Below, piece after piece: positions 31,175-32,256 of a stretch of 64,000 bases of DNA (positions are counted from its first letter, which is position 1; every line of letters starts with the position of its first letter). The DNA lies in assembly GCA_964461835.1 (NCBI GenBank), contig CAYWVO010000006.1, forward strand, positions 13,998 through 77,997, given 5' to 3'. The notes under the pieces were generated by a model. It did no database searches. It was not told the origin of the DNA and saw nothing but the letters and a program-made list of their open reading frames with translations. A program made the position numbers and the translations under genes. The stretch is from an uncultured Ignavibacteria bacterium. GTDB taxonomy: Bacteria; Zixibacteria; MSB-5A5; WJJR01; JAJRUJ01.

Positions 31175-31428
31175 ACTCCCAAATTATGGCGTGATCAAAT
31201 TATACTCATCCACCGGGTCAGGTGAGCAAAGCCCGTGCCTTTGCATGTTAATATTCGGTGTAGATGGAGTAGTGAGGTAACCGACAGAATCGCAAGCCAT
31301 TATGAATGCACAGATTGATCGGCAGCTCAAAGTCTATTAGACATTTGCGCTTTACTATGCAACCGGTTGCGAGATTCGGGAATGGGGGTTGCGATCTAAT
31401 GTTCGGTACTTTATGCGCTGAATATTTC

Positions 31429-31472
31429 GGGTGGCAACCCTGCTAACTCAGTCCGCCGGAGGCGGGGTTCCT
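31429..31472 (-). repeat. Family-B repeat, copy B4 in inverted orientation
   Basis: gggtggcaaccctgctaactcagtccgccggaggcggggttcc. Confidence 0.7.
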
Positions 31473-31540
31473 TTTGGATTGACGATGCAAATTTTTGTAT
31501 CCCACCCGGAGCTCGTGTGCCAAGGGCACAGCGAGCGTCA

Positions 31541-31582
31541 GGTGGGTCGGTACTGTTCATTGCAATCTTTTACCGACCCACC
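31541..31582. repeat. Perfect 12-bp inverted repeat GGTGGGTCGGTA-(18 nt)-TACCGACCCACC
   Basis: Read directly from the sequence. It lies within a repeat-dense intergenic region. Confidence 0.7.
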
Positions 31583-31726
31583 CGGCATTCCTCGCCCTGC
31601 CGGGCTTGTCATTCCGGGTGGGCTACATAAAATACAGCAACGACGGGTGGCAATCTCTAGCTTGTCCGCCGCTGGAAAAGCGATTCCCCGGAGGCGAACG
31701 CGGCTTGGGGCTGAAGATGGATTATC

Positions 31727-31756
31727 TGCCCAGCAGGTCTTTAACCTGCCCGTCTT
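31727..31756 (+). repeat. Family-A hairpin repeat, copy A8
   Basis: cccagcaggtctttaacctgcccgtc. Confidence 0.7.
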
Positions 31757-31764
31757 TCCCAACC

Positions 31765-31803
31765 ATGTCATCCCGGCCTTGAGCCGGGATCCATTTTGGG
31801 GGT
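31765..31803 (+). repeat. Family-C hairpin repeat, copy C3
   Basis: atgtcatcccggccttgagccgggatccattttggggg. Confidence 0.85.
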
Positions 31804-32256
31804 GGCTGATGGGGGCGTAGGTCGAAACTACTGAGGCGCCGCAGGTGGCGTGGTTTCAACAAGGTCATTCACAATTGCCCCACCATTCCAGAATCTGCTG
31901 CGCATCTTCTTTCATGGCGGGCCACCCGACTGCGCAAGGGGTAACTGAATTCCCGCCTACGCGGCAATGACTTTATTGGTGTCTTCTGCTAAAATTAATC
32001 GGACGGGCAGATGAGATCCGACACGGCGGATCGCGCACATGCCGGAAACGACCATACCGAAACTACGTTCCCGCCGCAGACGGAAAATCAAGGGATTCGT
32101 CCAACACAAAATCGCCTAGCACGTTGAAACATTGACAGATATCAGGGGCAGTTACACTTGTAGTATTTTTCGACACTTCTAAATTCTCTTTCTGGAAGGA
32201 CCGACTCTAGTCATGGCTCTTCCGAGGTACTGGGTGAAAACAAACGGGAGGTTATC

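Follow-up and report, generated by a model that had tools for sequence, protein, structure and literature searches.

Two divergent genes of an uncultured, Zixibacteria-like bacterium are separated by 1088 bp (31169-32256), and this locus raises the question of what such a spacer contains and whether it encodes or regulates anything. The spacer lies within a 64-kb stretch of a 92.9-kb NCBI contig, CAYWVO010000006.1, hereafter the window (the whole of the DNA that was analysed, 64,000 nucleotides; all positions refer to it), between a PEP-CTERM gene on the minus strand and a DUF1028/TPR gene on the plus strand, an arrangement that our analysis confirmed. The initial annotation described the region as repeat-dense and proposed either an unannotated small RNA (sRNA) or a regulatory region for the two genes. 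We find that the core of the spacer (31428-32082) is probably a mosaic of hairpin-forming interspersed repeats, similar to repetitive extragenic palindromic (REP) sequences, bacterial interspersed mosaic elements (BIMEs) and miniature inverted-repeat transposable elements (MITEs), housed in a tolerant gap between divergent promoters. Nothing points to a dedicated small-RNA gene.

Recurring units make up the core of the spacer

About 85% of the core corresponds to units that recur elsewhere in the window, in agreement with the repeat density reported initially, and units B4, B5 (partial), A8 and C3, all named at that time, each gave a profile match (Table 1). From left to right the core consists of B4, a palindromic element that we call D, the partial B5, the pair A8-C3, small remnants with unit E, and a decayed A-C module in the opposite orientation. 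Beyond the spacer, the window holds nine further matches to unit A at E<0.01, five to unit C, and three full copies of unit B plus fragments. Tandem Repeats Finder reported no tandem array, and blastn of the core against 72,556 plasmids returned no match.

Unit B is a nested palindrome of roughly 55 nt. B4 matched the corresponding model with an nhmmer E value of 3.8e-11, B4 itself being among the seed sequences, and aligns with the copies at 4900-4951, 15080-15129 and 15530-15582. The match of B5 is weak and confined to 31644-31675 (E 0.025); B5 has CGGGTGGCAA and CCGGAGGCG in common with B4. Unit E aligns in inverted orientation with 4197-4151 (blastn, 72% over 47 nt, E 0.002), and a 22-nt direct repeat links 31823-31844 to 32058-32079 with 77% identity. 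Six-frame open reading frames (ORFs) in this region are translations of the repeats, as initially supposed: the three long ORFs have no Pfam match, and the ORFs contain VIPALSRDP, a typical REP-derived peptide.

Table 1. Features of the spacer and its flanking genes, in window coordinates.
Feature	Positions	Strand	Description
PEP-CTERM gene	30473-31168	minus	Pfam PF07589
Left edge	31169-31423	minus	Unique, non-repeat; probable PEP-CTERM promoter and upstream region
Sigma-54-type -24/-12 element, AGGCACGGGCTTTGCT	31225-31240	minus	Putative promoter, 56 nt before the PEP-CTERM ATG
Unit B4	31428-31482	plus	Palindromic repeat GGGTGGCAACC..CCGCC-loop-GGCGG..TTTGG
Element D	31492-31631	none	140-nt palindromic element, MITE-like
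12-bp perfect inverted repeat	31541-31582	none	Central hairpin of element D
Unit B5	31644-31710	plus	Partial, degenerate B unit
Unit A8	31725-31754	plus	Degenerate A hairpin GCAGGT-CTTTA-ACCTGC, then CCGTC
Unit C3	31760-31808	plus	CGTC-tagged REP; profile match 31763-31804 (C3 in the seed alignment)
Remnant with GTAG (GTAGGTCGAAACTAC)	31817-31844	none	By-eye likeness to family M ends (GTAGGTCGG), low confidence
Unit E	31878-31924	none	Inverted match to 4197-4151
Second A-C module	31935-32040	minus	Degenerate; tail-to-tail with A8-C3
DUF1028 promoter and leader	32145-32256	plus	Extended -10-like TGTAGTAT; ribosome-binding site GGGAGG
DUF1028/TPR gene	32257-33240	plus	PF06267, E 1e-64

The 12-bp inverted repeat lies within a longer palindromic element

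The perfect inverted repeat singled out in the initial annotation was found exactly where it had been reported, GGTGGGTCGGTA at 31541-31552 pairing with TACCGACCCACC at 31571-31582 with 100% complementarity across an 18-nt loop. The window contains three inverted repeats that are perfect over 12 bp or more and have loops of 3-40 nt, against a mean of 0.1 and a maximum of 2 in first-order Markov simulations of the same DNA, and the repeat is therefore non-random. Of the remaining two, that at 15345-15390 is a GTAG-tagged repeat and that at 30414-30449 a bidirectional terminator. In the spacer, the 12-bp arms form the centre of element D, whose 19-nt terminal inverted repeats (TIRs; TTTTTGTATCCCACCCGGA at 31492-31510 and TCCGGGTGGGCTACATAAA at 31613-31631, 89% complementary) close a three-way junction in the predicted fold. 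Element D folds at -79.5 kcal/mol as RNA (z -8.3) and -41.6 kcal/mol as DNA (z -8.2), and the 12-bp-arm DNA hairpin by itself at -12.8 kcal/mol (z -4.8).

B4 and the left half of element D recur together on the minus strand at 46297-46173, between two unrelated genes (alignment score of 61 vs 26.7 ± 4.5 in shuffles). This second copy retains the exact left arm GGTGGGTCGGTA at 46173-46184 (minus) and has no right arm. A target-site duplication for element D was considered and rejected, as the flanking sequences GCAAA and TACAG share no direct repeat.

A metagenome scan for the exact 12-bp hairpin returned only one match, an unrelated hairpin in another organism; at the level of exact sequence, the hairpin is not a widespread family. 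The matching hairpin (L123, 2382-2419) is a longer, 16-bp structure, GGTGGGTCGGTAGGCG..CGCCTACCGACCCACC, on an unrelated contig, and lies between a minus-strand ORF (821-2290) and plus-strand ORFs.

We also compared the arms with family M, a group of GTAG-tagged repeats in the same window described below. Two mismatches in 12 positions separate the arm GGTGGGTCGGTA from the M end GGTAGGTCGGTG; with up to two mismatches, the window contains 12 matches to the arm 12-mer where 5 are expected, so the likeness, which hints that the element D hairpin may be a collapsed GTAG-type doublet, is weak evidence. Read as a GTAG REP, the arms give GGTGGGTCGG, in which the motif is GTGG and is base-paired; the unpaired GTAG tag of such REPs is thus missing.

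Unit C3 has the anatomy of a CGTC-tagged REP

Judged by its sequence anatomy, C3 is a member of the published CGTC-tagged REP superfamily. These repeats carry an unpaired CGTC tag (variants TGTC and CCTC), an 8-9 bp stem with complementary A/T at positions 1-2, a 4-5 nt loop and, at the 3' end, a short tail that is unpaired and in most cases CCA (Di Nocera 2013, PMC3733652). In C3 a TGTC tag (31766-31769) precedes an 8-bp stem starting with AT (ATCCCGGC at 31770-31777 and GCCGGGAT at 31783-31790) that encloses the 5-nt loop CTTGA (31778-31782), and the tail is CCA (31791-31793), a geometry that matches CGTC-2. Around the unit runs an outer helix, CCCAA/TTGGG, that is specific to this lineage. 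CGTC REPs mostly form inverted (HH) dimers, a tendency and not a requirement, are found mostly between convergent or co-directional genes, and have no known dedicated transposase (PMC3733652). The inverted-dimer arrangement was not seen here: the six C copies of the window, all intergenic, are singletons preceded by unit A.

To see how far this unit extends beyond the window, the 26-mer GTCAYCCCGGCCTTGAGCCGGGRTCC of unit C was scanned against one genome per species, which gave more than 120 loci; the counts that follow are among the matches listed. Hosts of the exact 26-mer include Sphingomonas, Devosia, Rhizobium, Ramlibacter, Polaromonas, Binatia, Coxiellaceae, a Bacteroidota isolate and a metagenome-assembled genome (MAG) of Paceibacterota. 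Across 137 occurrences in other genomes, the base before GTC is C in 102 (74%) and T in 34 (25%), and the tail base is A in 86, giving CCA in 63%, and C in 47. An inverted partner lies within 150 nt in 88 of the 137 (64%). The DNA on the 5' side of the motif is unrelated among these loci, and the motif usually forms the outer end of inverted doublets.

In 3 of 120 listed loci, small GIY-YIG nuclease genes are found no more than 600 bp away from the 26-mer (L077 6543-6833, L099 4616-4915 and L111 3803-4105 are example 26-mer loci). This proximity may deserve attention, as no enzyme is known to mobilise CGTC REPs. Searches of the literature for the C core sequence, and for GIY-YIG combined with REP, retrieved no papers.

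Hairpin units A and C recur as a pair

Unit A is a 7-bp hairpin that carries no tag. A profile seeded with eight other A copies, and not with A8, detected A8 with an nhmmer E value of 2.6e-5. Among 11 copies compared, the seventh pair of the stem covaries, being CG in six and UA in four, and these compensatory changes indicate that the A hairpin is maintained. A and C are found together in six modules of the window, with 10-50 nt between the two hairpins, and two of the six sit tail-to-tail in the spacer.

The second of these, on the minus strand, had been described initially as a degenerate A-like unit near 31992-32030. That unit is real, but it is one part of a whole decayed A-C module (Table 1) that has a homologue at 62480-62625 (blastn E 1.2e-6 against 62520-62618, 66% over 100 nt). 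Hidden Markov models of A and C did not detect it, and it is therefore clearly decayed.

Elsewhere in the window, A units begin 0-75 nt past stop codons and are in sense orientation to the upstream gene in 8 of the 9 unambiguous cases, antisense in one. In the spacer, A8 and C3 are in plus orientation with no plus-strand gene upstream, as the initial annotation had pointed out, and theirs is the sole repeat cluster of the window located between divergent genes.

Candidate control regions lie at the unique edges

The suggestion that the region regulates the two divergent genes holds for the spacer as a whole, which contains likely control regions, but these lie in its unique edges and not in the repeat core. 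The left edge has no second copy in the window. The PEP-CTERM gene starts with an ATG at 31168 preceded by a GGGAG ribosome-binding site, with an in-frame GTG at 31174. Upstream, AGGCACGGGCTTTGCT is the sole match in the window to TGGCACN5TTGCW with at most one mismatch; 2.25 matches are expected by chance, so that this count is not above chance and the sigma-54 assignment rests on context. PEP-CTERM genes are typically single-gene operons with upstream regions of more than 200 nt and a sigma-54 site, which includes a -24 GG / -12 GC element (motif 2) located 71 ± 38 nt before the start codon (Haft 2006, PMC1569441). AGGCACGGGCTTTGCT has this form, and its distance from the ATG falls within that range. 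A second published motif (motif 1), 17 nt ending in TTTACA, lies 63 ± 11 nt upstream of motif 2, and the published motif was found in Proteobacteria only (PMC1569441). By inspection, no TTTACA was present on the minus strand (TGTAAA on the plus strand) in 31260-31345. A perfect 12-nt palindrome, GCAACCGGTTGC at 31359-31370, lies about 120 nt upstream of the sigma-54-type site and is a candidate activator site. Genes for a histidine kinase and an NtrC-type sigma-54 activator occupy 26043-29147, the NtrC-family activator gene (27819-29147) being 2 kb from the sigma-54-type site. Its product scores below the PrsR cut-off, and its identity as PrsR was not confirmed.

At the right edge, the 110 nt at 32145-32254 share 84% identity with the sequence that precedes the closest DUF1028 homologue (L122, 1284-1397), compared with 79% for the coding sequences. 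The likeness ends abruptly before 32145, and the homologue has 234 bp of upstream DNA before the next gene. The DUF1028 leader has no unusual RNA fold (z +0.9). The closest homologues (78% and 73%) are tandem paralogues on one 2.7-kb contig. Neither an orthologous spacer nor an empty site was found among the closest DUF1028 and metallophosphoesterase neighbours, the latter being non-syntenic beyond that gene.

We infer that the functional control DNA of the spacer is the PEP-CTERM sigma-54-type promoter at the left edge and the short conserved DUF1028 promoter and leader at the right edge. The repeat core would thus lie between the control regions and not within them.

Repeats elsewhere in the window behave as multi-copy elements

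Family M comprises two inverted doublets of about 120 nt (15303-15425 and 48527-48649) and one single unit (21878-21928), and GTAG is present at four of the five outer ends. On the basis of these sequence features it is a GTAG-tagged, REP/REPIN-like family that coexists with CGTC REPs in one genome.

Repeat clusters occur between convergent genes (3811-5039 and 15060-15628) and between co-directional genes (21827-22084, 46025-46292, 48483-48663, 58208-58677 and 62446-62739), a placement that matches the published REP pattern. The DNA that precedes the window (roughly 9.7 kb) adds one more cluster, in which an M-like unit and a C-like unit lie between convergent genes. Window and upstream DNA together bring the genome sequence examined to about 74 kb.

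Short-read evidence came from four Logan contigs assembled for this organism (L127, L001, L128 and L129); one run had yielded three of them and a sibling run the fourth. Six ends of these contigs fall inside repeat units or within about 30 nt of them (31776, 3975, 58414, 62603, 58611 and 62484); that at 31776 is inside the C3 stem, and that at 3975 is the end of an A copy. Breaks at the units are the behaviour expected of multi-copy repeats. We also observed that the 3.8-kb gene at 58678-62445 was assembled alone, on contigs that measure 3.9 and 4.2 kb and have repeat clusters as their boundaries.

Next to an A copy (5004-5040), CTAC at 5040-5043 (GTAG on the minus strand) supplies the TAG stop codon (5040-5042) of a ferredoxin-like gene (5040-6218, minus). 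A GTAG REP that supplies a stop codon has already been described for GTAG REPs. An M element begins 14 nt past the stop codon of the downstream member of a pair of overlapping small genes on the minus strand (48664-49008 and 48993-49334, encoding 114 and 113 aa), neither of which has a match in Pfam or NCBIfam.

The repeat mosaic and its alternatives

The recurrence of the units elsewhere, their hairpins, the match to a published family and the unique, conserved edges of the spacer are all direct observations, and together they point to a repeat mosaic. The units may have arrived by copy-and-insert or by recombinational spread, as proposed for REPs and MITEs, often nesting beside earlier palindromes, and would have no locus-specific function here beyond adding structured DNA.

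Several points weigh against this explanation. Element D is represented by one full and one half copy, the latter without the 12-bp right arm, and genome-wide copy numbers are extrapolated because about 74 kb were examined. No transposase gene and no gene for a REP-associated tyrosine transposase (RAYT, of the IS200/IS605-type Y1 class) was found, by transposase domain, in about 40 scanned ORFs and the called genes of these 74 kb, and no empty-site allele was found for the repeat units; we therefore infer the mobility of the units rather than observe it. REPs between divergent genes ('div-REPs') are a minority class in published surveys. A promoter-like hexamer pair, TTGTCA-16-TAAAAT at 31606-31633 (10 of 12 matches), lies just upstream of B5-A8-C3. 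Finally, the sense bias of the A-C modules that follow genes (8 of 9) suggests a role at the RNA level, so that the two orphan modules of the spacer could mark the ends of unannotated transcripts.

The last two points bear on the sRNA proposed in the initial annotation, which we consider unlikely. Such an RNA would run on the plus strand from the promoter-like site at the right end of element D, near 31640, to the C3 hairpin, near 31800, or would consist of element D as a structured RNA. Element D does fold very stably, and, given that A-C modules elsewhere lie in sense at gene 3' ends, an orphan module on the plus strand would be in keeping with the 3' end of a transcript from that strand. 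Promoter prediction yielded four promoter-like sites in the region vs 1.1 ± 0.8 in shuffled sequences, but these are hexamers at consensus level only, and the sigma-70 consensus may not apply in this lineage. All parts of the putative RNA are copies of dispersed repeats, and the second copy of element D does without the right arm. Rfam gave no match to the region, only a tRNA elsewhere and chance-level matches being returned (gathering thresholds were applied to the whole window, and E values up to 10 were allowed for 31100-32300). The C hairpin and its T-run were rejected as an intrinsic terminator because the T-run pairs in the outer helix. The organism does use canonical terminators, as indicated by the perfect 14-bp inverted repeat at 30414-30449 (ATTAAAAAACCCGC / GCGGGTTTTTTAAT) that separates the convergent metallophosphoesterase and PEP-CTERM genes and is a textbook bidirectional intrinsic terminator. 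Furthermore, in one comparable related upstream region, which is not a syntenic spacer, nothing upstream of 32145 is similar. The core may still give rise to an incidental transcript.

The sense bias would be accounted for if the A-C pair were a bipartite, orientation-dependent RNA element of 3' ends, for instance a non-canonical terminator, or a stabiliser, with a co-opted CGTC REP at its centre. The orphan modules would then mark the ends of unannotated transcripts, one of them a structured RNA of about 160-300 nt with element D and/or B5-A8-C3. We regard this reading as doubtful to much the same degree.

Somewhat less probable still is that the repeat core acts as a cis-regulatory module, as upstream activator sites (UAS) for a sigma-54 activator or as a structural insulator or bending region. 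Activator sites normally lie about 60-200 bp from the -24/-12 element. Here that range falls in the unique DNA at 31250-31420, which contains the palindrome at 31359-31370, and not in the repeats. Sigma-54 promoters do need upstream activator sites and long intergenic DNA (Haft 2006, PMC1569441), and the spacer offers both a sigma-54-type site and a nearby NtrC-family activator gene; REP arrays flanking exopolysaccharide (EPS) genes have also been suggested to modulate expression (PMC3733652). However, motif 1 was absent by inspection, the closest DUF1028 homologue has only 234 bp of upstream DNA, of which the last 110 nt alone resemble the window, and the same units occur mostly after stop codons of unrelated genes. 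Descent of the spacer from a lost gene or a rearrangement, such as convergent 3' ends joined by REP-mediated inversions, is very improbable: the tail-to-tail A-C modules do mirror the convergent-gene cluster at 3811-5039, but the ORFs have no Pfam match, no coding remnant was seen and no syntenic relative gives the ancestral order, and such an event would be compatible with a repeat mosaic rather than exclusive of it.

The repeat mosaic carries mainly a practical caution, as structured, repeat-dense intergenic DNA produces spurious ORFs, breaks short-read assemblies and can be mistaken for sRNA genes or riboswitches. It also bears on the CGTC REPs themselves. A copy identical over 26 nt to those of Alphaproteobacteria in a Zixibacteria-like genome widens their known host range. 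Furthermore, the order in which a REP and a second hairpin are paired is constant in this lineage, and pairs that follow genes tend to lie on the sense strand.

Other genes of the window

The window also encodes an exosortase (1393-2322). Zixibacteria MAGs are the best named relatives of two window proteins, with about 50-65% identity. Genes for a PLD-family nuclease and an N6/N4 DNA methyltransferase lie in a low-GC island at 12019-14282 (40-44% vs about 55%), which is probably a restriction-modification system acquired by horizontal transfer.

Comparison with known systems

C3 resembles the CGTC REPs (Di Nocera, De Gregorio & Rocco 2013, BMC Genomics 14:522) in its tag, stem, loop and tail, and is extragenic and probably multi-copy. 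Unlike them, the C units described here are singletons set in direct orientation with a different hairpin, A, rather than inverted like pairs, carry a lineage-specific extension, ATTTTGGGG, that forms the outer helix, and reside in a Zixibacteria-like host, a phylum outside the five listed (PMC3733652). The left edge shares with the sigma-54 region of PEP-CTERM genes (Haft 2006) its long non-coding upstream DNA, single-gene operon and -24/-12 element. In contrast, motif 1 was not found, the activator falls below the PrsR cut-off, and the published motif is proteobacterial.

With REPIN and GTAG REPs, family M has in common the inverted doublet with GTAG at the outer ends, whereas element D differs from the REPIN-RAYT system in that its hairpin has a paired GTGG instead of an unpaired GTAG tag, and the 74 kb examined contain no RAYT gene. 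Bacterial MITEs such as Correia, ERIC, RUP and RPE offer a partial parallel to element D, which is 140 nt long and non-coding, has 19-nt TIRs and a stable fold, and is accompanied by at least one further partial copy; unlike MITEs, it has no visible target-site duplication, no known parent insertion sequence (IS) and a total of 1.5 copies.

As a whole, the core recalls E. coli BIMEs and the mosaic clusters of Neisseria, in which different palindromic units of interleaved families follow one another head to tail in mixed orientation. Its unit sequences are unrelated to E. coli REPs, conserved linker motifs have not been defined, and, unlike BIMEs and the Neisseria clusters, it lies between divergent genes and not at 3' ends. 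Intergenic mosaics in which CGTC REPs are interspersed with repeats of other families have been described (PMC3733652). CGTC REPs and mosaics of several repeat families were already known; new at this locus are the lineage of the host, element D, and a fixed coupling of A to C in which the C units are singletons.

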